Of a stretch of DNA of 64,000 nt, positions 1-61,083 are shown piece after piece. The stretch comes from an uncultured Candidatus Saccharibacteria bacterium (GTDB lineage Bacteria; Patescibacteriota; Dojkabacteria; GCA-002793355). The notes beneath the pieces were generated by a model that saw only the letters and a list, made by a program, of their open reading frames with translations, made no database searches and had not been told where the DNA came from. Each line of letters opens with the position of its first letter. Positions within the stretch are counted from its first letter, which is position 1. The stretch is taken from the NCBI GenBank assembly GCA_964525295.1, contig CAZGEO010000001.1:504662-568661 (forward strand). Reading direction: 5' to 3'. Made by a program: the position numbers and the translations under genes.

Positions 1-2009
1 TGATTCGACCTAATGGCAAACGTTGTAATATTTGAATCATTGCCAAGTTCGATAGTAAAATTTTTGACCAACTCAGCATCTGAAATACGCACAATACCAT
101 TGACACGATCATATTTACTATTACACTCACCTACTTTTGCAGTAACCTCCGACACGATGGCAGCTATTGACTGTTTTACTTTGTCAGTCTTGATCTTACC
201 AATAATCGCTTTTTCTTTATCAAATACCGGTTGAGCTTCTGCAGCACAAAGTTCCAATTGCTTTTCTGTGTCTTCTTTATCGATAGGAACGATATTTTGT
301 TCATAGAAACTAACAAACTTTGATTGAACCTGCTGAATCTCAGTCAACAATGACTTTTCTAACTTGTTCTGCGCATTAGTTGCACTAATGCGCCAAATAA
401 CAAACACCACAACTATCACAAAAATCAACCAGAAGCCTGGTGCAATTTTCTTTGGCCAAAGAACTGAAGGTTTACCTGAAAGATACATTTTTTGCGTGGT
501 GTCCGTAGACTTTTTGCCCACTAATGAAAGTATTTTTTCAATTAATAATCTGAACAGTCCACTAACCATTGCAATCGCAGATCTTACTGTTGGATGTCTC
601 GAAATCTTCGCCCACGGCGAATGCATTGATTTCAATTCTTGTACATAGTTGTTACTGCGCACATTTCCATTTGAAATTCTACCTATTGGCTGAGCTTTAA
701 CTGGTAGGGTTGATTCTTGCTTAATAATAGGAGCTGGCTCTTCTGAGATTGTTTCATCACCCCAATCTTGCGAAGTAAATTTTTTTAACTTCTCATCGGG
801 AGTTAAAACATCAGAAATCGATTCTACTTCTGACTTCTTCTCTTCTTCTTCTTTTACTGCATCATCAACGATTTCTTGGTACGTTCCTTTATCTAGAATC
901 ATTGCCGTCGTAACTTCTTCAGTAACTTCAAAATCATCAAAAGATACCGATCTATTTGCTACAGACTCAACTATCTCCTCTGACTCTTCTTCGGCAACCA
1001 CTTCAGAGTTTCGTGCCCTAATAACAGGGGGTGGAGCGACAAATCCTTGCACATTATTATTCTTTTCTAGCGGACTTTCTGCTACAGTTTCTTGTTCTTT
1101 GCCCTCAAACTCAAGTTCATCAATTTCTGGCGCAGGTTGTACTACTTCTTGAGGTTCAATGTTAGGCTCTATTGGCAAAGTAGCCTTCTCAGTAACAAGT
1201 TTTGGCTGAGAGACTTCAACAGGAACATCTTCCTCTTTTTTCTTCTTAAATCTGTCAAAGAAGGTGCCGACACTAGTAACAAATGATGAATATACTGCTT
1301 TTGCCCTGTCGATTGGCGAAGAAATTCCATTTTTTTGAACACTTGTTGTGCCAGCAACTTCCGCATCGCCAAGCGCAATGAGGAATAGTTTCTTGCTACC
1401 AAAAAGATTCTCTCTAAACGACTCAAGTGATTGCAGAAGAGCTTCAAGCGACGTCATTGCAAGCATATCAGCCTCGAAAGCATTACGAAGCAACGTTTTG
1501 TTGCCAAGCATTAAAACATCACCTCTATCGAGTTCTACTTCCAAGAACTTCAGGTCATATAACGATGCATTTGTTGGCACGAGCTTGCCCATATCTGCGA
1601 ACTTACTATTTCTAACGACGAAAATGTCAGCATCACCGAAACTAATGAGCTTTAGCATATACCCTTTTTCAGATGGAACTACATTGGCAAGTACAATATT
1701 TACATCAATACCTTCTTCTACGTTGAAGTTTCTAAGCAACTGAATAAACATCTTAATTGATGTTTTCAATGCTTGCTCAAAACCTACCGTGTAAAAATGA
1801 TCGTTAAAAGTTTCCCAAAAACGCTTTGTTATCTGTTCGTATACTGAATCGTCAACATCTCCCGAAAGAACCTCAAAGAACAATCCTATTCCACCGCTTT
1901 GCGCACGTAACGAATCGAGTGGATAATACCAGAAGATTCGAGAATAACTACCGCTCTCCAAATCATCTGAGAGGTATTGTTTTACTAAAAATGGGGCGTG
2001 TAAGCTCAT
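1..2009 (-). CDS. Large membrane protein, 5' part only (runs off window start): N-terminal PP2C/SpoIIE-like (possibly degenerate) domain, acidic low-complexity linker, one TM helix, extracytoplasmic C-terminal region
   Basis: Every codon of the minus-strand frame was checked and it is open from ATG at 2009-2007 to position 1 (669 codons, no TAA/TAG/TGA). Motifs ISFGDADIFVV and GDVLMLGNKTLL resemble PPM phosphatase motifs. The E/K-rich linker and the hydrophobic segment GFWLIFVIVVVFVIW are visible. The ORF track has no entry because the stop lies outside the window. Confidence 0.6.
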   Translation of the reverse strand, partial: MSLHAPFLVKQYLSDDLESGSYSRIFWYYPLDSLRAQSGGIGLFFEVLSGDVDDSVYEQITKRFWETFNDHFYTVGFEQALKTSIKMFIQLLRNFNVEEGIDVNIVLANVVPSEKGYMLKLISFGDADIFVVRNSKFADMGKLVPTNASLYDLKFLEVELDRGDVLMLGNKTLLRNAFEADMLAMTSLEALLQSLESFRENLFGSKKLFLIALGDAEVAGTTSVQKNGISSPIDRAKAVYSSFVTSVGTFFDRFKKKKEEDVPVEVSQPKLVTEKATLPIEPNIEPQEVVQPAPEIDELEFEGKEQETVAESPLEKNNNVQGFVAPPPVIRARNSEVVAEEESEEIVESVANRSVSFDDFEVTEEVTTAMILDKGTYQEIVDDAVKEEEEKKSEVESISDVLTPDEKLKKFTSQDWGDETISEEPAPIIKQESTLPVKAQPIGRISNGNVRSNNYVQELKSMHSPWAKISRHPTVRSAIAMVSGLFRLLIEKILSLVGKKSTDTTQKMYLSGKPSVLWPKKIAPGFWLIFVIVVVFVIWRISATNAQNKLEKSLLTEIQQVQSKFVSFYEQNIVPIDKEDTEKQLELCAAEAQPVFDKEKAIIGKIKTDKVKQSIAAIVSEVTAKVGECNSKYDRVNGIVRISDAELVKNFTIELGNDSNITTFAIRSN

Positions 2010-2012
2010 GTA

Positions 2013-2300
2013 CTAGAAGAGTAGCAAAAGTCCTAGGAAGATTGCAAGTCCCAGCACGGCAAAAAAATGAATTAACGCAATATATCGCATAACCCCCGAA
2101 CCTGGAGTAGAGAGGGTTAATGACAATATTCTGATTCGTAAATAAAGAAAAAGTGCGAAGAACACATACATTGCAATAACAATAATGATGAGGAACTTCA
2201 ACCCGTACGAGACAAATAACCCAGCTGTCTCACTCAAATCAAGATCCATTATACTAAAGTTCGTCGTCAGGGATGGCGCCATTTTGCTTCTCATTCTCAA
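2013..2300 (-). CDS. Small two-TM membrane protein (start probably at an internal Met near 2249)
   Basis: Hydrophobic 78-95 aa ORF packed between two minus-strand genes. Its stop TAG sits 3 nt before the next gene's ATG. Confidence 0.4.
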   Translation of the reverse strand: MRMRSKMAPSLTTNFSIMDLDLSETAGLFVSYGLKFLIIIVIAMYVFFALFLYLRIRILSLTLSTPGSGVMRYIALIHFFAVLGLAIFLGLLLLF

Positions 2301-2883
2301 CTAAGTCCATAATAATATCTTGAACATCTCTTGCCTTCGGCATATTTTTAAGTTCAAAATTTTCTTTGTGCGAGGCCGTCAAAATCACGAGATTTGCCAT
2401 GTCAAACAAGGTATTAATGAATCCTGGAGTCGAATACGACACATCTTGAACAGCACGTAACATGGTTGTGCTCCAACGTGATTCAGTAATCGAATCGAAA
2501 TCGAGATCTACAATACGACTAGAAGTGATTAAGGTTACAGTAAAATACCACTTGAAAAAATCATAAATCAGTGAGGTTAATGCAATACCTGAACCCCCAA
2601 CGAGTAATGCAAAAGAGATTCCAAGCAATTGCGTATACGATGCGAATGCGGTATTTAGTGCCCACACAATCAAGCCAATAAGAAAGAACGTTCCAATTCC
2701 TCTAAGGAAACCAGGGATCAAAACAATTGGATGTTGGCGTAAAAACAGAATAATCTGCTCTTCATTATCACGCCCATCGAAGTTGACATTTTCTGGATAC
2801 ACACGAACAGCATCAAGCAGACGTATTCGTGAAAGTTGTTGGACCTTTGAATACGAAGATTGACTAACTTTTATTTCAGCCAT
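2254..2883 (-). CDS. Membrane protein with bacterial PH-like (YdbS/YdbT-type) domain
   Basis: Two TM helices followed by a soluble domain. Its start overlaps the upstream SpoIID gene stop (2883). Confidence 0.55.
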   Translation of the reverse strand: MAEIKVSQSSYSKVQQLSRIRLLDAVRVYPENVNFDGRDNEEQIILFLRQHPIVLIPGFLRGIGTFFLIGLIVWALNTAFASYTQLLGISFALLVGGSGIALTSLIYDFFKWYFTVTLITSSRIVDLDFDSITESRWSTTMLRAVQDVSYSTPGFINTLFDMANLVILTASHKENFELKNMPKARDVQDIIMDLVENEKQNGAIPDDEL

Positions 2884-4913
2884 TAGTTGTACTCAATTTT
2901 TATCTCAGTATTTGCAGGAACTGTTTTTATAACTGAATTTCCATCAGAAATCTGGATTTCGGCCCTTGACGTTACCGTCATAACCCGAGAACCGACCTTT
3001 GATAGTGCAATTCTTACGTTTCTGCCTATATCGTATTGTACTACATTTGCCCCATTATAGTAATAGGAAAGTATCGACTTATAGGACTGCCCTGCTTGAG
3101 CTCGCCCCTGAGCACCGTACTGACTCATCCCAACGCGATGGCCATAACCACGTGACCACATTTGCCAATCTTCAGAAGAAACCTTTTTTATATCGTACAG
3201 GCTCGACCATAGCGAATTATTCCCAGGAGAACGAACATTATATGAGGTCTTAAACCCTACTCCCGAAATTCGCATCGTTCCTTTTGCTCCGGTTACTTCA
3301 ATAAATGAGGTCTGTTTTGTGTTCTCAACAATTGTTTTACCCCCCTGATCGTAAATTTGCTCAACCTTGTCTATTGCACCAATTTTATTTTGTATTGAAT
3401 TTGCACCAAGTGCCGAAGCTAACGCAGATGCAGACTGCTCTCCAGTAGTTTTAACCGTTTTGTGAATATCGTAATATATCGCGCCATTCAAGTAATCTGT
3501 CATAAGTGCCATCGTATTCGTATGAGTTTGTTTCAACCAATACGAGAGAGAGCCATTTCCATAAGGCTTCCAATTTCCTTCAGCATCTTGGTATCTATCT
3601 GGTTTTGCCTGCAAATAATCACGATATCCTCCAAAAGAAGGAGATTCATTAGAAGCTAAGGTGTGCCCACCAGTTTCTGCTGAATACAATGCTTGAATGA
3701 TAGAACCATTGTGAGAAGCTACTTCTTTAGTTGTGCTATCTACCGCTGATTTCCAATTATTTCCCGAGGCACCCTTAATTTTTGAAGTTCCTACGTAATC
3801 TTGATCACGAACTGAATCATAAAGATCAAATGCTCCATATCCGCCACGTTGCATTTTATATACTGCGTAACTTCTCCCCGCAACTGCTTGCACTTTCAAC
3901 GCTTCACTATGCCACGAGGATGGCATTTCACCGAGCCCATAAAGATATTGATCGAGAGGAAGTTCGTTAATTGCAAAAATTCCTGAATTTTTATTGAATT
4001 CGATAACACCAAAATATTCAGTAGTCCACGCTCCTTTAAGTGTTATTTCATTATTTGCCGACCTAACACGAACAATATTATTGGTTCTTTGCAATAAACT
4101 ACCTCCAACGAGTATAGAAATTGCTCCAGATGGATTCGGTGTTACCGCCGGAGGAGCAGTTGAGCCCCCACCCGCCCCAGAACCTGACCCGCCACTTGGA
4201 GGTTGAACTGAGTTTGCTTTTTGATTCAATATTGCCTGCGCAGCTTTTGAAAGATTTGATATATCTGAAACCAAACTATTTCTTTGTGCATAATTTTTCG
4301 CCAAAGCAGCTGCCAATTGAGCTTGTTGATTTTCTAAATCTGCAATTTTCTGATTAACATCTGAAAGTGACGCTTGTAACTGCTTTTGCTCATTTGCAAT
4401 AGAACTTTTACGTTCTGCTAAGGCAGTTTGCTGCGTTAAAAGATACTCTCGCTCGTTGCTAAGTAACTTCTCTTGAACATTATAAAAGAGTAACTTGTCT
4501 AACAAACGTGCCAAATCAGCAGTTTCAAACAATGTAATTAGCAGACTCTTTTGCGATTCTACGTAAAACAAAGCTTGTTGTAGTGAATGTTTTTTTGCCA
4601 AATCGGCCAATTGCGCTTCTTGGTCTTTTGAGGCACTCTCTAAAGATGATAAATCTGCATTCATTGAAGCTACAAGCGCTTCTAGCTTCTCTTTGTCTTT
4701 CTTTAATTCTGAAATTTTTGTGGAAATACTCTGCTTTGATGATGCAGTTGTTGAAATTTCTTTCATTATTGCATCGAGTTCACGTTGCTTTTGTGATTTT
4801 TGTTGCGCAATCTCTTCTTCTGTTTGAGCATATACTGAGGCGCCTTTAATAACAACCCCGCTAATTATGACAAATAATAAAAGAAGTAGGAGTAATGCGC
4901 GGGGAGTTCTCAT
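2883..4913 (-). CDS. SpoIID/LytB-domain protein with long N-terminal coiled-coil (EnvC-like) region and Gly/Ser/Pro linker
   Basis: Signal/TM at the N-terminus and a Q/K/E-rich coiled coil. A C-terminal SpoIID signature LYGLGEMPSSWHSEALKVQAVAGRSYAVYK is present. Confidence 0.8.
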   Translation of the reverse strand: MRTPRALLLLLLLFVIISGVVIKGASVYAQTEEEIAQQKSQKQRELDAIMKEISTTASSKQSISTKISELKKDKEKLEALVASMNADLSSLESASKDQEAQLADLAKKHSLQQALFYVESQKSLLITLFETADLARLLDKLLFYNVQEKLLSNEREYLLTQQTALAERKSSIANEQKQLQASLSDVNQKIADLENQQAQLAAALAKNYAQRNSLVSDISNLSKAAQAILNQKANSVQPPSGGSGSGAGGGSTAPPAVTPNPSGAISILVGGSLLQRTNNIVRVRSANNEITLKGAWTTEYFGVIEFNKNSGIFAINELPLDQYLYGLGEMPSSWHSEALKVQAVAGRSYAVYKMQRGGYGAFDLYDSVRDQDYVGTSKIKGASGNNWKSAVDSTTKEVASHNGSIIQALYSAETGGHTLASNESPSFGGYRDYLQAKPDRYQDAEGNWKPYGNGSLSYWLKQTHTNTMALMTDYLNGAIYYDIHKTVKTTGEQSASALASALGANSIQNKIGAIDKVEQIYDQGGKTIVENTKQTSFIEVTGAKGTMRISGVGFKTSYNVRSPGNNSLWSSLYDIKKVSSEDWQMWSRGYGHRVGMSQYGAQGRAQAGQSYKSILSYYYNGANVVQYDIGRNVRIALSKVGSRVMTVTSRAEIQISDGNSVIKTVPANTEIKIEYN

Positions 4914-22514: not shown

Positions 22515-22713
22515 GAAAATGGTTGTTGGGATTTGAAACTTGAGGAGAACATGACCAACGTCATGTTTGACGAGAGCGGGGCTGCGCCTAACAACATTTA
22601 GAGTATATATGTGCATTTTCAGTGATGAAGAATGAATCCTGAAAATGTTGGGTAGCCGAATCCCGGCATGATGCATTCTTTGTTTCAATAAAACTGTAGT
22701 AAAATTCACTATT

Positions 22714-23214
22714 ATGCTACAAACCTCCGATGAACTTATAGATATAGTCAATGACAAAGACATTGTAATAGGTCAAGATTTCAAGGTAAATGTTCACGCA
22801 AAAAGTAGAGTTTTACACCGCGAAATTGGCGTACTTATCTGTGATGAAAAGGGAAGATTTTTACTGCAACAGCGAAGTTTTAAGAAGAAATTCTTTCCGG
22901 GCACCTGGAGTGTTAGTGCAGTTGGGCATGTGCCGGCAGGCATGACCCCCGAAGAAGCAGCGCACAAAGAATTATTTGAGGAGTTGGGGTTTGATACCGA
23001 ATTACAATTCATAGAAAAGCGCGTCTACGATTCGGGAGAACACTGTTCTTTTGGATATTTTTATAAAGGTCTTTGTTCAAGTGAGGTGAAAATCAAACTA
23101 GATCCAAACGAGGTTGAGCAGGCAAAATTTGTTACAAAAGAAGAATTACATCAAATGATGCACTGTGGAATCGTTGATTACCATACTGTTGAAACAATTA
23201 ACAAGTTCGGTTAA
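22714..23214 (+). CDS. NUDIX hydrolase, isopentenyl-diphosphate delta-isomerase (type 1)-like
   Basis: Nudix box GHVPAGMTPEEAAHKELFEELGF. HREIGVLICDEKGRFLLQQRSFKKKFFPGTWSVSAVGH parallels the IDI KK.WPG.W..S.CGH motif. Confidence 0.6.
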   Translation: MLQTSDELIDIVNDKDIVIGQDFKVNVHAKSRVLHREIGVLICDEKGRFLLQQRSFKKKFFPGTWSVSAVGHVPAGMTPEEAAHKELFEELGFDTELQFIEKRVYDSGEHCSFGYFYKGLCSSEVKIKLDPNEVEQAKFVTKEELHQMMHCGIVDYHTVETINKFG

Positions 23215-39261: not shown

Positions 39262-40101
39262 GTGAGAAGACAAGAAGTGCCTACTCCTGAACGGAAATTG
39301 TGTACAGAAAATTGGTGGGTTCGTAGTGTAGATAAATTGTGGCGTTTTCTGGGCTTCTATCGCTGTGCTGGATGCGATAAGTTTTCGTACACTCTTTGTA
39401 ACACATGTTGTGACAGATTGACCTTTGCTGTGCCTACTTGTTGTCGTTGCGGAAAATTTTCAAGGAATGGTACGATTCACCAAATCTGTGTACCTAATTC
39501 GCAATTCTATCAAAAAACAATATCATTTTTCTCATACACAAAAGTTGTAAAAAGTCTTTTTGCTGCCTATAAGTTTCGGCGACAATTTCAATATCAGCAG
39601 GTATTAGCCGAGTTAATCAAACAATACTTTTTGCTTGACCCTTTTCATTTATTGTCGTGTAACTTTAATTCTGGCGACAAAATTGCACTTATACCTGTGC
39701 CAATGCACAAAAGAAAGCAGAGTGACCGTGGATTTTCACCAGCATATGAACTCACTCTCCTACTCTACCGTGAATTCTTTCAGAATTTTAGCAACGAAAT
39801 TGAAATTTTTGGGCATACTATAACCAAAGTAACTGACAGTTCTGCTCAGTCTTCGCAGAAGCACCGTAATAGGATGCTTTCACTTCAGCGGTCTATACAA
39901 ATTTTGCCAGAAAATGTGTCGGAAGCTTCGCGACTTCTAAAATTCGCACCAACAAAACTTGTTATTGTCGATGACATTTTAACTACTGGCGCGACCGCAA
40001 CGGTTGTTATTGAATCTTTAGCAAAAAATTTACCAGAACTATGCAAAAACACAGAACGAATAGTAATAACGTTTGCTAGAAGCGATAAAAAGCTTTACTA
40101 G
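39262..40101 (+). CDS. ComF-family protein (N-terminal zinc-finger + phosphoribosyltransferase domain)
   Basis: CAGCDKFSY..CNTCC..CCRCGKF and PRPP-binding VIVDDILTTGATAT. Confidence 0.75.
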   Translation: MRRQEVPTPERKLCTENWWVRSVDKLWRFLGFYRCAGCDKFSYTLCNTCCDRLTFAVPTCCRCGKFSRNGTIHQICVPNSQFYQKTISFFSYTKVVKSLFAAYKFRRQFQYQQVLAELIKQYFLLDPFHLLSCNFNSGDKIALIPVPMHKRKQSDRGFSPAYELTLLLYREFFQNFSNEIEIFGHTITKVTDSSAQSSQKHRNRMLSLQRSIQILPENVSEASRLLKFAPTKLVIVDDILTTGATATVVIESLAKNLPELCKNTERIVITFARSDKKLY

Positions 40102-43100
40102 ACAACAATTTTCAGTTGTAGCGGTGTTTTTTCTGCGCCTACTTCAACAGTCGTAAAACCTGCGCCTTCAGGAGAAGTTGCTAGGATACTAACTTCACTT
40201 AAGAATGTCGTTGTTGCCAACTTTTCCTGATACTTGTTAATCATTTCATTGAGTTTTTTCTCTTCGCTGTAAACTTCAAGTTTTGCTCTTTGTCCAATTG
40301 CAAGGTTAGCATTCTTTCTAGCTGCCTGAACAGCACGAGAAATCTCGCGCAGTAGCCCCATCTCTGCAAGTTCTGGCGTAATCTCAGTTTCGAGCCCAAT
40401 AGTAACATCCTTTTCTGATTTGGTAACAATAGTAGTTGATTCTGGCATTACTTCAACCATTTCTACTGATTGCACATTGAGTTCTTCAGCGATTAAATCG
40501 AGATATTCCTGCTCAAGTTTCTTGTCAGCCTGATACATTACTTTTTGGAGAGGTTGCTTCAATGCTAATGCTTTTTCAACACGAATGTTCTGCCCGAGTG
40601 AGGCAACTTCACGAGTAAATTCCATTGTGGTTAACGCCTTTTCTTCTGCGGTTGTCAAAGCATTCACTTCTGGATACAACTCAAGATGCACAGATTCAAG
40701 CGTTAAGACAGTTGGTGCACCTTTTCTCAATTCTTGATAAATGTAATCGGCTATAAATGGCACTATGGGAGCAAAGATTTTTGCCACTGAAACAAGAACC
40801 GAAAAGAGCGTTTGTAACGCAGCTTTATCACCTGCAACGAATCTTTCTCGTGAACGACGAATGTACCACGTAGAAATGTCATCTATAAGAGGTTTTATCT
40901 CAGAAACAGCCTTTGGTACATGATAGGAACTTAGATGTTTATCAATATCAATGGCGGTCTTTTTAATTCGTGCAAGTACCCATTCATCGAGAACAGTTGG
41001 GGTAACTTTCGTTTCTGTAGCGTCAAAATTGTGTTGATTAGCGTATAGAGCGAAATATTTGTACACATTCATAAGTGGGAGTAAAACGTCTTTTATCGGC
41101 TGCGCAATTGCTTCTTCTGAAACGTTCAGATCTTCGCCAACCGGAAGAACGCTACCTGCGACATAAACTCTAAATGCATCTCCCCCATATTTTTCAATTA
41201 CTCCCTTTGGATCAGGATAATTCTTGAGACTCTTGCTCATCTTTCTGCCGTCAGTACCTTTGATAGTTCCTGTTACGATGACATTCTTAAACGCATTCGA
41301 TTTGAAAAGAATTGTTGAAACAACGTGCATGACATTGAACCACGCTCTTGTTTGTCCAACATATTCGATAACGAAATCTCCTGGGAAATTGTTTTCAAAT
41401 TTCTCTTTATTTTCGAAAGGATAGTGATATTGAGCAAAAGGCATTGATGCCGATTCAAACCAACAGTCTAAAACTTCTGGGACTCGTGTCATCGTACCTT
41501 TCTGGCATTCTTCACATTTCCACGTATGCGTATCAATGTATGGACGATGCAGGTTGTCTATTTTCTTTCCTGATTTTGCTTCAATTTCTGCAATTGAGCC
41601 CATGACTTCACGATGGTGACAGGTTGGTTCGGAACATTCCCAAATAGGCATAGGTGTCGCCCAGTAGCGGGTTCGTGAAAGTCCCCAATCAGGGAAGGTT
41701 TTGATCGCTTCGCTGAATCTACCGTATTTTAGATGTTCTGGAACCCAGTTGATGTTTTCGTTGTTTGCAAAAAGTTGCTCCTTTATCTGTTGAATATCGA
41801 CATACCAAGCGCCTTGAGCCTTGTAAACAAGTGGCGTTTTACAGCGATAACAGATTGGATAACTGTGAGTGATTCTCTCCTCTTTGTATAAAATACCTCG
41901 TTCCTTTAGATTCTCGGTTATTGCTGGATCAGCCTTTTTGAAATAAATGCCCGCATAATCGGCTACTTCTGAAATAAACTTTCCTTCATCATCAATGGTT
42001 TCGTGCATCGAAAGGCCAATTTCTTTTCCTAGTGCGGTATCATCTTCACCGAATCCTGGTGCCATGTGAATGATTCCCGTACCATCTTCAATACTGACGA
42101 AATCTGCGTGATAGATTTTGAAATCCTTGTCACCTGCTGGGAAGTAGTTGAACAGCGGTTTGTAGGTATTGCCAACTAATTCTTTACCTTTATAGGTATC
42201 AACTACCGTAAAGGGAGTTTCCTTTAACACTTTTTCTACTAAATTTGCAGCGAGAATGACATATTCCTCACCAATTTTGGCGGTAACGTAGTCTTGTTCT
42301 TTATCTACAACAAGTGCTGTATTGGCCGGCAGCGTCCATGGAGTCGTTGTCCAGGCCATTACAGAAACCTTAGGTTTGCTAATGTTAGGCTCTACTGTTT
42401 GCTCATTGATAATTGAAGATTGATAATTAACAATTGAGGGTTTGTTCTCTAGGATGTCTTTCAAGCAGTTCCTTGTTGGAATATGCATGTCGTTCCATGG
42501 AATATCGTTTTTGTCGAACCATTCAATGTTTTTATCAAGTCCCGCTTCGTCGGTAACTTTAATGTCACCTGTAACTTTCGCCTTAAAATGGTGAGTCTTG
42601 AACAATCTACCTTCGAAAATATCGATTGCGTAACCATAATATTCAAGAGCAGCAATATCGCAACCTATCTCCTCTTTAATCTCTCGGGCAACCGTGTTTT
42701 TTAAGTCGCCATTATCTTGCTCTTCATATTTTCCCCCGACGATTCCGTATACTCTATCTCGACCAGGTTCGTTTCTGCGAATCATCATTACTTGGCCCTT
42801 TTCATTTTCAATAACAACACCTGCGCCAACTCCGGTTTTGTAGTAATTCAATTCGAATTTAACAAAGACGGCTGGATCTTCCAGATCTGCATACGAGTTA
42901 TCCATTGCAATCTCGAAGTTAGAAAGTGGAGTTCCACATCGAGTGCAGTACAAAGAAACTCGTTTTCCTTGATAGACAAGCCCTTTTTCGAAGAATTGTT
43001 TGAAAACCCACATAACGGTTTCCATGTAATTCAAATCCATTGTTCGGTAGGGCTTTTTCATGTCAACCCAACGTGCAATTCTGTCGATATACCATTCCCA

Positions 43101-43505
43101 TTCACCAGAAACGTCGGTTACGTAGGAATAGCAAGAATCGATAAATTGTTGGATACCAATCTTAGTTTCGATCTCACGACGATTTTTAGTTTCGAATTTG
43201 CGTTCAACAATTTCTTCAATTGGCAAACCGTGACAGTCCCATCCCCAAACGCGTTTTACTCTCTTTCCTTTCATTGTTTGATAGCGAGGAACGATGTCTT
43301 TTATGATACTTCCGAGTAAGTGTCCGTAGTGAGGAAGTCCTGTAACGAATGGAGGCCCATCATAGAAAATGAAATGATCTTTTTCAGAACGGCTGGTAAT
43401 AGATTTCTCAAAAATGGAGTTTGATTTCCAATAATCAAGTATCGGTTGTTCCACCTCGTTGTAAAACGAGCGTACATTGGGAACTGAAAAAGAAGATTTA
43501 GTCAT
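40098..43505 (-). CDS. ileS: Isoleucyl-tRNA synthetase (type 2, eukaryote-like C-terminus) carrying a ~150-aa NUDIX-hydrolase insertion (about 42381-42833) between the catalytic-core Zn-knuckle region and the CP1 editing domain
   Basis: HIGH = PHYGHLLGS, KMSKS = KMSKSLKNYP, CP1 WTTTPWTLPAN. The insert holds a Nudix box GIVGGKYEEQDNGDLKNTVAREIKEEIGC. The gene is leaderless (TATAAT 5 nt before the ATG). Confidence 0.9.
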   Translation of the reverse strand: MTKSSFSVPNVRSFYNEVEQPILDYWKSNSIFEKSITSRSEKDHFIFYDGPPFVTGLPHYGHLLGSIIKDIVPRYQTMKGKRVKRVWGWDCHGLPIEEIVERKFETKNRREIETKIGIQQFIDSCYSYVTDVSGEWEWYIDRIARWVDMKKPYRTMDLNYMETVMWVFKQFFEKGLVYQGKRVSLYCTRCGTPLSNFEIAMDNSYADLEDPAVFVKFELNYYKTGVGAGVVIENEKGQVMMIRRNEPGRDRVYGIVGGKYEEQDNGDLKNTVAREIKEEIGCDIAALEYYGYAIDIFEGRLFKTHHFKAKVTGDIKVTDEAGLDKNIEWFDKNDIPWNDMHIPTRNCLKDILENKPSIVNYQSSIINEQTVEPNISKPKVSVMAWTTTPWTLPANTALVVDKEQDYVTAKIGEEYVILAANLVEKVLKETPFTVVDTYKGKELVGNTYKPLFNYFPAGDKDFKIYHADFVSIEDGTGIIHMAPGFGEDDTALGKEIGLSMHETIDDEGKFISEVADYAGIYFKKADPAITENLKERGILYKEERITHSYPICYRCKTPLVYKAQGAWYVDIQQIKEQLFANNENINWVPEHLKYGRFSEAIKTFPDWGLSRTRYWATPMPIWECSEPTCHHREVMGSIAEIEAKSGKKIDNLHRPYIDTHTWKCEECQKGTMTRVPEVLDCWFESASMPFAQYHYPFENKEKFENNFPGDFVIEYVGQTRAWFNVMHVVSTILFKSNAFKNVIVTGTIKGTDGRKMSKSLKNYPDPKGVIEKYGGDAFRVYVAGSVLPVGEDLNVSEEAIAQPIKDVLLPLMNVYKYFALYANQHNFDATETKVTPTVLDEWVLARIKKTAIDIDKHLSSYHVPKAVSEIKPLIDDISTWYIRRSRERFVAGDKAALQTLFSVLVSVAKIFAPIVPFIADYIYQELRKGAPTVLTLESVHLELYPEVNALTTAEEKALTTMEFTREVASLGQNIRVEKALALKQPLQKVMYQADKKLEQEYLDLIAEELNVQSVEMVEVMPESTTIVTKSEKDVTIGLETEITPELAEMGLLREISRAVQAARKNANLAIGQRAKLEVYSEEKKLNEMINKYQEKLATTTFLSEVSILATSPEGAGFTTVEVGAEKTPLQLKIVV

Positions 43506-43555: not shown

Positions 43556-44356
43556 TTAACGTGCGACTTGTCTCAATGTTTGCAGGAAGTTTAGTCCCTG
43601 AAAATAGATGAAAAGGTCTTTTTCGTAAAGTAATTTTTCAAAAGTCTTTTCTTCGCTATAAAGTGGCGCGGTGAAATAAAATATTACCGCTGAGAGCAAT
43701 TGAGCCTGTTTACGAGTGTAAAGGTCGGCAGAATTAAGAGGGTTAGGGTTTTCTGCAATATAAGGAAATGGAAAGTTTTTGATTAAAAAGTTTGCCGGCA
43801 TCTGTGGAAATTCCGAGACAATTACGGAGTGCAATTGGTTTAATACATGCGTCGAAAAAGTAGGATCAATTGTCTTCACAATATTCAACAATCGTTTTGC
43901 ATTTCGAAACTTCTCTGATTTGGGCATGCAAGAAAGAATTCCACGGGCAACTTTGAGTGCGTAAAATTCTGGAGGATATTCACTGGTCTGACAATTCGCA
44001 TCGCGAATATGCATTCCTATATATTCGAAAAACTGGTCGATATACTCTTCTGAATGTTTTCTGATCCAAGTATCTCTGTAGAAGTAAAGTGTTGGTAATT
44101 CATATAATTTTTTTGCGTTGAGTAAGTGCGCAGTAACCCGGGGGAGAAAGTATTCTTTATTACTGAGACCAACAACCGATGAAGGAGTATTAATCCACAT
44201 ACTAACGTTGTTGGGATTATCTACCTCTTTAACCTCGTTAAATATTCCTCGAAGAAACGGCCCTCCGTCAGTACTTACGTTAGCCAATTCAGTAACAACA
44301 AGAGCTTCAACACGTGAAATTGGGGAGGTCTTTGGCAGTTCAATCGTTTGAGCCAC
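43556..44356 (-). CDS. Hypothetical protein (266 aa)
   Basis: Long ORF divergent from the ligase gene. Confidence 0.45.
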   Translation of the reverse strand: MAQTIELPKTSPISRVEALVVTELANVSTDGGPFLRGIFNEVKEVDNPNNVSMWINTPSSVVGLSNKEYFLPRVTAHLLNAKKLYELPTLYFYRDTWIRKHSEEYIDQFFEYIGMHIRDANCQTSEYPPEFYALKVARGILSCMPKSEKFRNAKRLLNIVKTIDPTFSTHVLNQLHSVIVSEFPQMPANFLIKNFPFPYIAENPNPLNSADLYTRKQAQLLSAVIFYFTAPLYSEEKTFEKLLYEKDLFIYFQGLNFLQTLRQVAR

Positions 44357-44435
44357 TGCAGTAGTATAAAAGATTTGCTTATGAATCGCAAAATTATGAA
44401 ATTCGCTAATACTTACATTACTTGTATAATTGGTT

Positions 44436-46280
44436 ATGACAACAACTCAGCTTTCTACTCTTTTTTCTGCAATAGAAACGACTCCAAAAAGACTCGAAAT
44501 GCAGGCATTACTCACAGATTTTTACGCAAATGCTTCTTCTGAAGAGGCTGCAATAGTGTCGTATTTACTTATTGGCCGATTGGTGCCTGATTTTATTGCG
44601 GTTGAGTTCCAATTATCAGACAAAACATTGCGTGCAGTAGTTGAAGAACAACAAGATCAGGATATCTCAGAAAAATTGGCTAAATTGGGGGACATTGGTT
44701 CAGTTTGGGAAGCCTCGTCTACGACATCGGGTGAAATAACGGTAGAAGATTTGTATCAGAAACTCTGGGAAATTGCCCAAACAACCGGAACTGGCTCTCA
44801 GAAGAAAAAACAGGAATTGATTAAGAAATTGTTGCAACAAGTATCACCTCTTTCAGGAAAGTACGTATTGCGAATTATGAATAGTAAATTGCGATTAGGG
44901 GCGAGTGAACGAACTATTTTAGAAGCTCTGGGAAAATTACCAGGTGGAGAAATCGAGAAATTAAAGGAATTGTATGCTAATACGAGCGATATCGGTCACA
45001 CAGCATTTCTTTTCAAAAAATACGGAACTGAATGTTATAAACAAGCTTCGTTTCAGCCTGGTGTTCCTGTGTCAGCAAAGTTGGTTGAACGTGAAGATTC
45101 AATTGAATCGATATTTAAGCGAATTCCTGCTCCACTAGAAGAACCGAAATATGATGGCTTACGCATACAAATACACGTATTTCGAACCGATGCAGCAAAA
45201 GTTGCGTATGCAGAACGAGTGTGGGCAAATAATTATCAATTATCAATTACCAATGCTCAATTAAAAGACGAAAAGGCAGCGACATTGTCACTCTTTGCCG
45301 AGCCGGTCGAACTGAAAGAAGACGAATTTACTGTGCAATTGTTCTCTCGCAATCTTGAGAATATGACTGAAATGTTTCCTGAAGTGGTTGAAGCAGCAAA
45401 GAAGTTACCTGAGCAATATTCGAGAAAGTTCGGTGAAAAGGTAGATTCCATTGTCCTAGATGGTGAAGTTATTGGTTACAACGATGTAGTTCAAGAATAT
45501 CTTCCTTTTCAGCAGACAATGACTCGAAAGCGCAAACATGACGTTGGCAATGCCTCAGATGCCGTACCAGTCAAAGTTTTTTCCTTCGATATTTTGTTGC
45601 TAGGTGATCGCAATCTTATGGCTCTTCCATTGCGTGAGCGTAAGGCACTACTAACATTTCTTGATGAGAATGCTGATGTGCAGCAAACAATTGTTAAGAC
45701 ACCAATCCATGAGCCAAAGACTCTTGAAGAAGGTGAGAAAATCTTCGAAACATACATTGCGCAAGGATTAGAAGGCGTAATATTTAAAGATAGTGATTCT
45801 GTTTATACTCCAGGAACTAGGAATTTTGATTGGTTAAAATTCAAACGAGCAATGCGTAGCGATCTTGCGGATAGCGTTGATATTGTACTTTTAGGGTATT
45901 ATCGAGGCGAGGGAAAACTGGCAACTTTTGGTATTGGAGCTCTTCTTGCAGGTGTATACGACCGAAAAAGTGACAAATTCTTAACGGTGACAAAAATAGG
46001 AACAGGAATTACCCATGAACAGTGGCAATCGATCAAAATCGCTTGTGATGCCGTTAAAAGTGACCGCCATTTGGACAATGTTATCGTTCCAAAATCATTA
46101 GAGCCTGATGTTTGGCTTTTACCTTCATTGGTAGTTGAGGTCGAGGCAGATGAAATTACGAAAAGTCCGTTGCATACGTCAGGATATGCTTTGCGATTTC
46201 CAAGATTTAAGAAATTCCGTGAGAAAAAGGCTGAAGATGCAACAACAATTGAAGAACTCAAAGAAATAGCCAAGATCTAA
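44436..46280 (+). CDS. ATP-dependent DNA ligase (Lig1/LigB-type: DNA-binding, adenylation and OB domains)
   Basis: Motif I EPKYDGLRIQ (KxDGxR), later motifs IVLDGEV, EGVIFK, DIVLLGYYRG. The leaderless start is 44436 (TGTATAAT then 5 nt then ATG); the track start is 44430. Confidence 0.85.
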   Translation: MTTTQLSTLFSAIETTPKRLEMQALLTDFYANASSEEAAIVSYLLIGRLVPDFIAVEFQLSDKTLRAVVEEQQDQDISEKLAKLGDIGSVWEASSTTSGEITVEDLYQKLWEIAQTTGTGSQKKKQELIKKLLQQVSPLSGKYVLRIMNSKLRLGASERTILEALGKLPGGEIEKLKELYANTSDIGHTAFLFKKYGTECYKQASFQPGVPVSAKLVEREDSIESIFKRIPAPLEEPKYDGLRIQIHVFRTDAAKVAYAERVWANNYQLSITNAQLKDEKAATLSLFAEPVELKEDEFTVQLFSRNLENMTEMFPEVVEAAKKLPEQYSRKFGEKVDSIVLDGEVIGYNDVVQEYLPFQQTMTRKRKHDVGNASDAVPVKVFSFDILLLGDRNLMALPLRERKALLTFLDENADVQQTIVKTPIHEPKTLEEGEKIFETYIAQGLEGVIFKDSDSVYTPGTRNFDWLKFKRAMRSDLADSVDIVLLGYYRGEGKLATFGIGALLAGVYDRKSDKFLTVTKIGTGITHEQWQSIKIACDAVKSDRHLDNVIVPKSLEPDVWLLPSLVVEVEADEITKSPLHTSGYALRFPRFKKFREKKAEDATTIEELKEIAKI

Positions 46281-60239: not shown

Positions 60240-60947
60240 TCAATAGTCTTCGGCTTCTGCCACATCTTCAACGTATTCGAAAGGCATTTCTAAATATTCG
60301 TTTACAGTTTTTAGCGAAAAAGTGTCAAAGAGGTCTGTTCTTTGAGCAATTTCTTCTGCTGTATTCCAAATATTCTCTTGATGAGCGGTTTGTTGAATGA
60401 ATTCACCACCAATATCAGTAACTAAGTGACGGTAAAAAATTACATCTTGGACTGTTGATTCACCGTGCTTACGAATTTTATGATAAATATTGATCAGCTT
60501 AATATTTTTGGCAGTTAGGCCTGTTTCTTCAAAAAGCTCTCTGAGTACAGCATCTTTTAAAGTTTCGCCAAAGCGTACTTTGCCACCGAGAAAGCCAACT
60601 TTTCCATAATATGGTTGTCGAAGACGCTTTGAGAGTAAAAATTCATCGTGATTCGTGCCTGTACGTTTGCGTGTAACAATGAAGATAACGGAAGTCTTCG
60701 GCTGTTTTTCGATCTCTGTGATTGTGTCATCCATCAAATTTGCGTAATCTTTTCCGGTATCAGTTAATTCATAATGTCCATTTCTTCGGCGAACGAACTC
60801 AAGTTCCATCAATTTCTGTAGATGGTAATTCATGTGTTCGCTTTCAATTCCTTCGATTATTAGGTCGTTGAATCGAAGTGGATCTTTATGCAGAGTCAGC
60901 TTTCGCAAGAGCTCTTTTTGTAAATTGTGTAATTTTGTTTCTGTCAT
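60240..60947 (-). CDS. NUDIX hydrolase with N-terminal winged-helix domain (reverse domain order relative to NrtR)
   Basis: Nudix box GGKVRFGETLKDAVLRELFEETGL. N-terminal wHTH-like LQKELLRKLTL...FNDLI...YHLQKLMELEFV. Confidence 0.65.
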   Translation of the reverse strand: MTETKLHNLQKELLRKLTLHKDPLRFNDLIIEGIESEHMNYHLQKLMELEFVRRRNGHYELTDTGKDYANLMDDTITEIEKQPKTSVIFIVTRKRTGTNHDEFLLSKRLRQPYYGKVGFLGGKVRFGETLKDAVLRELFEETGLTAKNIKLINIYHKIRKHGESTVQDVIFYRHLVTDIGGEFIQQTAHQENIWNTAEEIAQRTDLFDTFSLKTVNEYLEMPFEYVEDVAEAEDY

Positions 60948-61083
60948 GATTGATTATTATGCGATTTTAGCATTGATTCAACTGAAAAATATTTTAGTAA
61001 GAGAAATAATCTGCGATATCGATTCTCCAAGTAATTGAGCATTAATGATTGATAATTAATAATTAAACAGGTTATAATCCTCA

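Follow-up and report, generated by a model that had tools for sequence, protein, structure and literature searches.

A Nudix domain nested in the CP1 editing domain of an isoleucyl-tRNA synthetase from a Dojkabacteria-like bacterium, and related insertions in neighbouring enzymes

Introduction

Accessory domains of aminoacyl-tRNA synthetases (aaRSs), among them the WHEP, GST and EMAPII domains appended to the eukaryotic enzymes, are mostly terminal and mostly non-catalytic modules that bind proteins or RNA. Here we describe a different arrangement in a 64,000-nucleotide (nt) stretch of contig CAZGEO010000001.1 (the window, by which the whole stretch is meant), where ileS, the gene for isoleucyl-tRNA synthetase (IleRS), encodes a Nudix domain, a predicted hydrolase, within the CP1 editing domain. 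As with the domain appended to Plasmodium TrpRS (PMC3680381), a dispensable extra domain is carried on a conserved core; in contrast to most known cases, the extra domain is a predicted catalytic phosphohydrolase, lies inside the editing domain, occurs in very small bacterial genomes and was acquired more than once.

The nearest architectural precedent is the NCBI family ileS_w_GNAT (NF040702, 'isoleucine--tRNA ligase, N-acetyltransferase domain-containing'), whose curation by NCBI implies that IleRS with a whole inner GNAT domain exist elsewhere. The two architectures are alike in holding a complete, unrelated enzyme domain inside the IleRS polypeptide and differ in the guest, which is a GNAT acetyltransferase in the one and a Nudix domain in the other. 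Searches of the full-text literature outside subscription-only papers found no report of a Nudix, GNAT or other enzyme domain inside IleRS, in agreement with the original prediction, made from the letters of the window, that such an insertion was undescribed.

The closest structurally described relatives are the type-2 (eukaryote-like, mupirocin-insensitive) bacterial IleRS (PDB 8c8u/8c8v and 1ile), which the window enzyme resembles in sequence (E 5e-206), in fold (TM 0.82) and in its HIGH, KMSKS, threonine-rich and His/Asp editing motifs and DUF5915. Unlike them, it bears about 160 additional residues (the Nudix domain plus a linker) on the tip of its first CP1 hairpin, where the solved enzymes have 7.

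Host enzyme and anatomy of the insert

A single long open reading frame (ORF) on the minus strand (window 40098..43505) codes for an intact type-2 IleRS of 1135 residues, in which Pfam recognises tRNA-synt_1 (PF00133; residues 22-795, 408 bits), Anticodon_1 and a C-terminal DUF5915, and which reaches 802.5 bits against a cut-off of 621.4 for the NCBIfam IleRS equivalog model TIGR00392 (ileS). Its best PDB matches are Priestia megaterium IleRS2 (8c8v) and the T. thermophilus enzyme (1ile), and the protein is identical to P0346, found in NCBI and Logan on a 659-kb contig. A full-length AlphaFold2 (AF2) model built from 64 aligned IleRS (predicted local distance difference test, pLDDT, 88.9; predicted template-modelling score, pTM, 0.78) superposes on 8c8v with a target-normalised TM of 0.82, and also on the yeast IleRS-tRNA complex 8wnd. 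The features of the gene, with window coordinates and strand, are the following.

40098..43505, minus: complete type-2 ileS with HIGH, KMSKS, anticodon-binding domain and C-terminal DUF5915
43320-43331, minus: HIGH motif (HYGH), residues 59-62, read from the translated sequence
42849..42947, minus: Zn-knuckle CTRCGTP (residues 187-193) and the outgoing beta-strand 205-219 (...AVFVKFEL) into CP1; the 8c8v alignment ends at residue 219 and DSSP assigns the strand to 205-219
42450..42836, minus: Nudix-fold domain, residues 224-352, joined to the preceding strand by NYYKT alone (residues 220-224)
42660..42737, minus: Nudix box GGKYEEQDNGDLKNTVAREIKEEIGC, residues 257-282, with its metal-binding core REIKEE at residues 274-279 (nt 42669-42686)
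42594..42620, minus: family-specific motif IFEGRLFKT, residues 296-304, in which E298, G299, R300, F302 and T304 are invariant
42369..42449, minus: return linker ENKPSIVNYQSSIINEQTVEPNISKPK, residues 353-379, poorly conserved, variable in length and predicted to be disordered
42039..42368, minus: return strand (residues 380-386), leading through WTTTPWT to the editing His/Asp motif GTGIIHMAPGFGEDD, from alignments and the translated sequence
42333-42353, minus: CP1 threonine-rich editing motif WTTTPWT, residues 385-391, invariant from W385 to T391
42039-42083, minus: editing His/Asp motif GTGIIHMAPGFGEDD, residues 475-489, read from the translated sequence
41229-41243, minus: KMSKS, residues 755-759, read from the translated sequence

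The position of the insert follows from the alignment with 8c8v, in which residues 10-219 pair with chain residues 5-211 and residues 382-1016 with 219-849, so that some 160 residues (220-381) occupy the place of 7 in the solved enzyme. This supports the site proposed for it, past the strand of the Zn-knuckle and ahead of the threonine-rich motif of CP1. The original prediction had about 150 residues replacing a loop of about 25; the replacement is real and closer to 160 residues, the last 27 or so of the segment 42381-42833 being linker outside the fold, whereas the replaced loop turns out to be much shorter, at 4-8 residues in the nearest relatives and 7 in 8c8v. In Thermus it presumably has about 11-18.

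That the inserted segment is a Nudix domain, as had been proposed, is corroborated, well past what chance could give, by a profile and a structural model. Pfam places NUDIX (PF00293) at residues 224-336 with E 5e-13 and 49.6 bits in context against a cut-off of 21.1, and the excised segment 42381-42833 (residues 225-375) alone scores 53.1 bits; PF00293 scores among insert-bearing orthologues range from 47 to 80 bits. An AF2 model of residues 216-381, built with 90 aligned Nudix sequences (pLDDT 81.9, pTM 0.74), has the order of strands and helices of a Nudix fold.

The peptide originally quoted as the Nudix box, GIVGGKYEEQDNGDLKNTVAREIKEEIGC, is found at residues 254-282. Its second half, REIKEEIGC, matches REUxEExGU, while the upstream half, GGKYEEQDNGD-LKNTVA-RE, is 2 residues longer than the canonical G-x5-E-x7, with D267 or E262 where a canonical box has Glu; the upstream spacing of the orthologues P0078, P0080 and P0081 is exactly canonical. 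Downstream of the box, E298 may serve as catalytic base or contact the substrate. On profile and predicted fold, and with a box that largely fits, the insert belongs to the Nudix superfamily.

In the full-length model, strand 205-219 runs out from the Rossmann fold and Zn-knuckle region, and strand 380-386 runs back and straight into WTTTPWT; W385 to T391 are unchanged throughout the 64-sequence alignment, and the structures 1wk8 and 1udz, in which the T. thermophilus editing domain was solved in isolation, align from residue 375 onwards. The Nudix domain is modelled with a pLDDT of about 90 and residues 359-369 with less than 50, and orthologues have linkers of 15 to more than 28 residues. 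As modelled, the domain would thus be fixed at its N-terminus almost without a linker and return at its C-terminus along a tether of some 27 disordered residues.

The CP1 editing site appears intact and, because the HIGH, KMSKS, threonine-rich and His/Asp motifs are all present, the host looks like a working, editing-competent IleRS whose first CP1 hairpin has taken up a guest at its tip. Taking the anatomy as a whole, we are highly confident that the CP1 editing domain begins with a beta-hairpin whose tip holds a compact MutT-like Nudix domain (residues 224-352), and that the host protein is a type-2 IleRS serving as the housekeeping enzyme of a Dojkabacteria-like bacterium of the candidate phyla radiation (CPR).

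Distribution and conservation

An exhaustive HMMER search with the insert as query against 1.84 billion representatives returned 5 matches below 1e-10 (clusters at 50% identity), all of them long proteins that are IleRS by Pfam and carry the Nudix domain at residue 222-225 or thereabouts. When each GTDB species was represented by one genome, 12 of the genomes scanned had an uninterrupted IleRS ORF (1116-1389 residues) with the Nudix domain in this position (site 1), so that the insertion does recur in CPR bacteria, as the original prediction had suggested should be surveyed. The labels of insert-bearing genomes (8 Candidatus Dojkabacteria, 2 Saccharibacteria, 1 'bacterium', 1 unclassified Patescibacteria and 1 metagenome-assembled genome of Bdellovibrionales) agree with the expected CPR origin, the hosts being Ca. 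Dojkabacteria and their relatives. Among the 120 closest IleRS, PF00293 occurs in about 24 clusters at 90% identity, and at least 32 distinct IleRS sequences have the site-1 insertion; the architecture can already be seen in the Pfam annotations precomputed for public proteins. An assembly artefact or a pseudogene was considered and is ruled out by the uninterrupted ORF and by the same in-frame architecture in the 12 species genomes and in many independent metagenome assemblies.

The core RE-x2-EE, whose conservation among orthologues the original prediction had left to be checked, occurs without exception in the 32 distinct site-1 inserts, which are 34-70% identical. Across the 12 genomes, mean pairwise identity is 48.4% in the Nudix domain and 47.8% in the editing domain, with 53.5% in the catalytic core, 34.0% in the C-terminal part and 27.8% in the linker. 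Invariant residues in these genomes include K223, G225, G227, G229, R244, R249, G257, G258, K259 and R274, as well as E275, E278, E279, E298, G299, R300, F302, T304, W329 and P343, while the Nudix-box G is exchanged for D, N or Q in some site-1 orthologues. With an identity on a par with that of the editing domain and an invariant RE-x2-EE, the site-1 domain bears the signature of purifying selection for catalysis.

Two observations on individual members may be added. In the Nudix-bearing IleRS P0078 and P0079, the Zn-knuckle cysteines are lost, with SLFSVETGTP and VPYSTRAGST in place of SLYCTRCGTP (window residues 184-193). The insert of the genome labelled 'uncultured Bdellovibrionales' (L016; CAYQVD010000001.1, a 122-kb contig) is the one nearest to standalone CPR Nudix proteins, and either this bin bears a wrong label or the gene has spread beyond the Patescibacteria.

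Gain and loss of the insert

Close relatives of the window enzyme exist without the domain. The proteins P0352-P0358 (975-982 residues), 62-69% identical to the window IleRS, have no insert and close the hairpin tightly (KFPVV-GQEKTFIVAWTTTPWT). In a distance-based neighbour-joining tree (920 shared columns, 100 bootstraps), the clade of the window enzyme includes insert-less enzymes with 100% bootstrap support, and the same support is given to a clade uniting P0359 and P0363, which have the insert, with P0368 and P0369, which do not, and to a clade of L012, with the insert, and P0440, without it. On the simplest reading of this pattern, the insertion would be old and would have been precisely lost several times; it is also possible that the insert moved among ileS alleles by recombination. 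Since close relatives cleanly do without it and the trees imply repeated loss or gain, the insert is an accessory module that stands outside the mechanism of aminoacylation.

A further kind of variation is an in-frame TAG four codons past the Nudix box (EEIGCTV-stop-TMTYTG; L003:1189-1191 and L004:1048-1050), corresponding to about window residue 286 (nt ~42648-42650). The same codon is AAG (Lys) in the 99.3%-identical Crystal Geyser Dojkabacteria genome L005; relative to it the stop is a true point change from AAG to TAG, seen in two assemblies (ENA ERZ27293347 and JGI 3300005235), and the window does not have it. Two codons further on there is an ATG, and in this strain the IleRS could be split, the stop could be read through or the gene could be dying; in any case the stop implies that a break in the Nudix domain is possible. 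For the fragmented gene calls P0001-P0003, recoding or a gene split by nature was also considered and set aside; L001 (a long-read contig) and L002 (coverage 1.56) are probably fragmented by errors.

Relationship to described Nudix families

The insert shows superfamily features with no match to a defined subfamily. For MutT/8-oxo-dGTP diphosphatase it scores 20.5 bits against 97.9 (TIGR00586) and 17.1 against 148 (NF008044), for YtkD (TIGR02705) 19.1 bits against a cut-off of 154, and for NudC (NF001299) 19.8 against 158; among the orthologues, P0080 reaches 68 bits against a cut-off of 245 for PRK08999, and the RppH models give 25-39 bits on P0080 and P0081 against cut-offs of 116-259. The NudC signature motif, SQPWPFPxS, is not found in the translated insert-bearing segment. 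Ap4A hydrolases reportedly share a conserved Tyr about 16-18 residues past the Nudix box, an observation credited to Dunn and colleagues in 1999, and this Tyr is absent from the insert, whose positions +16 to +18 read E-G-R. The residues by which MTH1 recognises the base, Asn33, Asp119 and Asp120, include an Asp pair that is likewise absent: KDMWPDD of MTH1 aligns to NDMHIPT of the insert, and Asp119/Asp120 fall on HIPTR.

The best PDB sequence matches of the insert are uncharacterised MutT-like proteins and MTH1, at E 1e-3 or weaker. With the standalone MutT/MTH1-like enzymes (4dyw, 3grn, MTH1, NUDT15; P0227-P0233) it shares the same length and the loop-helix-loop with RE-x2-EE, and with a standalone CPR Nudix family also the N-terminal 'GVGxGxxIxN' strand, the L016 insert scoring up to 108 bits. 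Unlike all of these it is nested in another enzyme, and it has motifs of its own, namely an invariant (F/I)(F/I)EGR(L/I)(F/Y)xT and IPT(R/K)N, whereas the consensus of the standalone relatives has no IFEGRLFKT-type motif; its G-x5-E spacing is also longer by 1-2 residues in Dojkabacteria. RppH/NudH/IalA, NUDT2 and mycobacterial MutT1 are free-standing, in contrast to the nested insert, which by sequence is a specific member of none of them. Judged by sequence, the insert derives from the standalone CPR Nudix family and would work like a standalone MutT-type Nudix enzyme, as a member of the superfamily that fits no defined subfamily.

Further guest domains in related enzymes

When length outliers among the relatives were examined irrespective of domain type, three more insertion sites came to light. 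Site 2 is the tip of hairpin 405-411/414-419, after window residue 411 (nt ~42273). P0437 has a Nudix domain there (residues 265-385) and none at site 1, whereas P0370 and P0371 have one at both sites, the second at residues ~395-550. At the same site P0451 (residues 259-444; L035 4001-7546, Ca. Dojkabacteria MBN1331502.1) carries a 186-residue domain resembling CYTH/triphosphate tunnel metalloenzymes, which begins with EIELEK (E-x-E-x-K) and matches N. europaea NE1496 (PDB 2fbl/3typ) with E 7e-12, although Pfam gives no significant match on the 186 residues and the source annotation also misses the domain. We take NE1496 to be NeuTTM. NeuTTM is a specific tripolyphosphatase of the CYTH family (PMC3440374). 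P0370, P0371, P0437 and P0451 form one clade with 100% bootstrap support, so that Nudix and CYTH domains alternate at site 2 among close relatives.

Site 3 is represented by L014 (ORF 209-4327), in which 137 extra residues after window residue 455 make up a second Nudix domain (56 bits). Site 4 lies after window residue 642, in the second half of the catalytic domain, where P0081 (1382-1389 residues; L015 ORF 2638-6804) holds a His_Phos_1 domain (residues 642-819, 114 bits, RHGES motif) in addition to its site-1 Nudix domain. The Nudix domains of sites 1, 2 and 3 share at most 35 bits between groups, whereas site-1 domains and standalone Nudix proteins of CPR share as many as 108; at least three independent Nudix acquisitions follow from this. 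All four further guests (Nudix twice, CYTH and His_Phos_1) belong to phosphohydrolase families, and three of the four lie within CP1.

The GNAT-bearing family NF040702 may use a neighbouring position. Its model matches window residues 414-998, and the profile offset, with window residue 414 at profile position 446, suggests that its GNAT domain lies at or before the site-2 CP1 hairpin. The window enzyme itself stays far from membership, with 305 bits against a cut-off of 1999 and no acetyltransferase match by Pfam.

Proposed function and competing explanations

The aaRSs are the classical source of diadenosine tetraphosphate (Ap4A) and kindred polyphosphates. By adenylating ATP, ADP, ppGpp and tri- or tetrapolyphosphate, they yield Ap4A, Ap3A, Ap3Gp2, p4A and p5A, and the asymmetric Ap4A hydrolases are the Nudix enzymes RppH/NudH/IalA, MutT1 and NUDT2 (PMC7705103). 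Against this background, we tentatively favour a mechanism that may well prove wrong, in which the insert would be an active Mg2+-dependent pyrophosphohydrolase placed beside the synthetase. It would cleave adenylylated polyphosphates (Ap4A, Ap3A, Ap4N, p4A), which arise as side products of the enzyme-bound aminoacyl-adenylate, to AMP and a nucleoside triphosphate (NTP) or diphosphate (NDP), and such cleavage at the source would limit the build-up of alarmones and cap precursors. The chief argument for a functional link to the synthetase is that phosphohydrolases recur independently in the same enzyme, and p4A in particular is brought in by the resemblance of one site-2 guest to a tripolyphosphatase, tripolyphosphate being the acceptor from which aaRSs form p4A.

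Several findings weigh against this proposal. The Nudix domain is dispensable, since close relatives lack it and one strain has an internal stop codon within it. Nor do all the guests keep their catalysis, the Nudix box being gone from the site-2 domain of P0370. The window insert stays under every cut-off of the NCBIfam Nudix subfamilies, with about 20 bits at best, and none of the RppH models (NF001934-NF001938) finds it at E <=0.01. IleRS is said, in work of Goerlich and colleagues from 1982, to be a weak producer of Ap4A compared with LysRS and PheRS. Two standalone Nudix genes lie within the 64-kb window, and such abundance of Nudix genes in the genome makes a chance insertion possible. 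These same two genes lend no support to another idea that was considered, namely that the insert substitutes for a missing standalone Nudix enzyme.

More broadly, the IleRS of Dojkabacteria and neighbouring Patescibacteria might be a platform that repeatedly recruits phosphohydrolases, mostly to CP1, as a second level of 'proofreading' of nucleotides or RNA ends coupled to tRNA charging; we consider this possible though doubtful. The recruited enzymes might destroy Ap_nN, p4A or tripolyphosphate at the synthetase, or they might repair the acceptor end of tRNA-Ile, where a 3'-pyrophosphate added by a toxin could be removed in two steps, by the Nudix domain and then by the His phosphatase.

Foremost among the rivals to a nucleotide-cleaving partner of the synthetase is a passenger, a house-cleaning or salvage MutT-like pyrophosphatase for NTP or NDP-X that came to lie in a surface hairpin tolerant of insertions, in a gene both essential and constitutively expressed, and is kept for its own activity, with no connection to aminoacylation. 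The nearest neighbours in sequence and fold, which are generic MutT, MTH1 and uncharacterised Nudix proteins, fit such an origin, as do a parent family of standalone Nudix proteins of 130-150 residues common in CPR and Firmicutes, the frequency of Nudix genes (two more in the window), the repeated loss of the insert with no replacement of IleRS, and a long disordered tether that suggests a loosely attached module. Yet random passengers are hard to square with four of four further guests being phosphohydrolases and three of four lying in CP1, and where mere co-expression is at stake, internal insertion is far rarer than terminal fusion. We think this origin unlikely, while giving it real weight.

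A second alternative, which we hold to be improbable, would make the insert an RNA-end enzyme tethered to CP1 close to the acceptor end of tRNA-Ile, removing a 5'-triphosphate or cap in the manner of RppH or NudC, or a toxSAS-type pyrophosphate from the 3'-CCA end, after which the His phosphatase would take the remaining phosphate. It draws on the placement of every Nudix and CYTH insertion site in CP1 hairpins or loops, on the joint presence of Nudix and His_Phos_1 in the IleRS of L015/P0081, and on the fact that both the Nudix (RppH) and the CYTH families (Cet1-type RNA triphosphatases; PMC8233210, PMC9582702) include RNA-end phosphohydrolases. The inserted CYTH domain, however, resembles the inorganic tripolyphosphatase NeuTTM and not Cet1, the NCBIfam models for RppH and YtkD remain far under their cut-offs, no RNA-binding extension is visible in the insert, mature tRNA normally has a 5'-monophosphate, and no link connects toxSAS toxins with the insert-bearing genomes.

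Still less probable is a sensory or structural role, in which the Nudix fold would bind a nucleotide (Ap4A, ADP-ribose or ppGpp) and so modulate editing or aminoacylation, or would stabilise CP1, with catalysis not under selection. Ligand-binding, non-catalytic Nudix proteins have precedents in NrtR (3gz5/3gz8) and in CFIm25, which binds Ap4A (PMC7705103), and both the exchanged box glycines of some orthologues and the box-less site-2 domain of P0370 would suit it. Non-catalytic Nudix domains nevertheless typically lose the very residues (R274, E275, E278 and E279) that are invariant in 32 of 32 site-1 domains, a pattern that speaks for a catalytic Nudix enzyme.

The last alternative, hydrolysis of misactivated Val-AMP as extra pre-transfer editing or of an antibiotic mimicking Ile-AMP, is very improbable: the insert does adjoin the editing pocket, and NCBIfam does list IleRS with an inserted GNAT, a family in which enzymes such as MccE detoxify aminoacyl-nucleotide antibiotics, but aminoacyl-adenylates and their sulfamoyl or phosphoramidate analogues do not have the diphosphate bond that Nudix enzymes cleave, the intact CP1 editing motifs leave nothing to compensate, and the insert-less sisters share those motifs. 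To our knowledge, aminoacyl-adenylates are neither 'nucleoside diphosphate-X' compounds nor known Nudix substrates, and of the substrates originally suggested (Ap4A, misactivated adenylates and NAD-capped RNA) they are the least likely.

Implications

The interest of these enzymes rests mainly on the pattern of recurrent insertion confined to phosphohydrolases, a possible sign that tRNA charging and nucleotide clean-up are connected in a way not yet described. IleRS bearing Nudix, CYTH and His-phosphatase domains amount to a natural experiment on the control of Ap4A-type products at the point of synthesis. If the synthetase does act as a platform for phosphohydrolases, in either the nucleotide-destroying or the tRNA-repairing version, they would represent a new functional class of aaRS accessory domain; if the insert is only a passenger, it is a curiosity of domain architecture. 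Equally, the CP1 editing domain proves to have several hairpin tips that tolerate the insertion of a whole enzyme, which is useful for aaRS engineering, and a case of enzyme-in-enzyme nesting is added to those of the ultra-small CPR genomes.

Genomic surroundings

The genes next to ileS in the window are the following.

43556-44356, minus: ORF of 266 residues with no Pfam match, upstream of ileS
44430-46280, plus: ATP-dependent DNA ligase, divergent, on the upstream side of ileS
39262-40101, plus: PRTase/ComF-like ORF, downstream and convergent

Nothing in this neighbourhood bears on the function of the insert. The ligase-ileS arrangement is also found in L001 and L034. Rfam and ARAGORN report neither tRNA-Ile nor RNase P RNA near ileS in the window, a tRNA-Ser being all that they find there. 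The ComF-like ORF and the 3' end of ileS (its stop codon) overlap by 4 nt (40098-40101), and the ORF has a Cys-rich, zinc-ribbon-like N-terminus. The two standalone Nudix genes of the window, at 22672-23211 (plus) and 60243-60953 (minus), score at most 33 bits to the IleRS insert, and the second has a winged-helix-like DUF7347 N-terminal to its Nudix domain, reminiscent of NrtR-type regulators.

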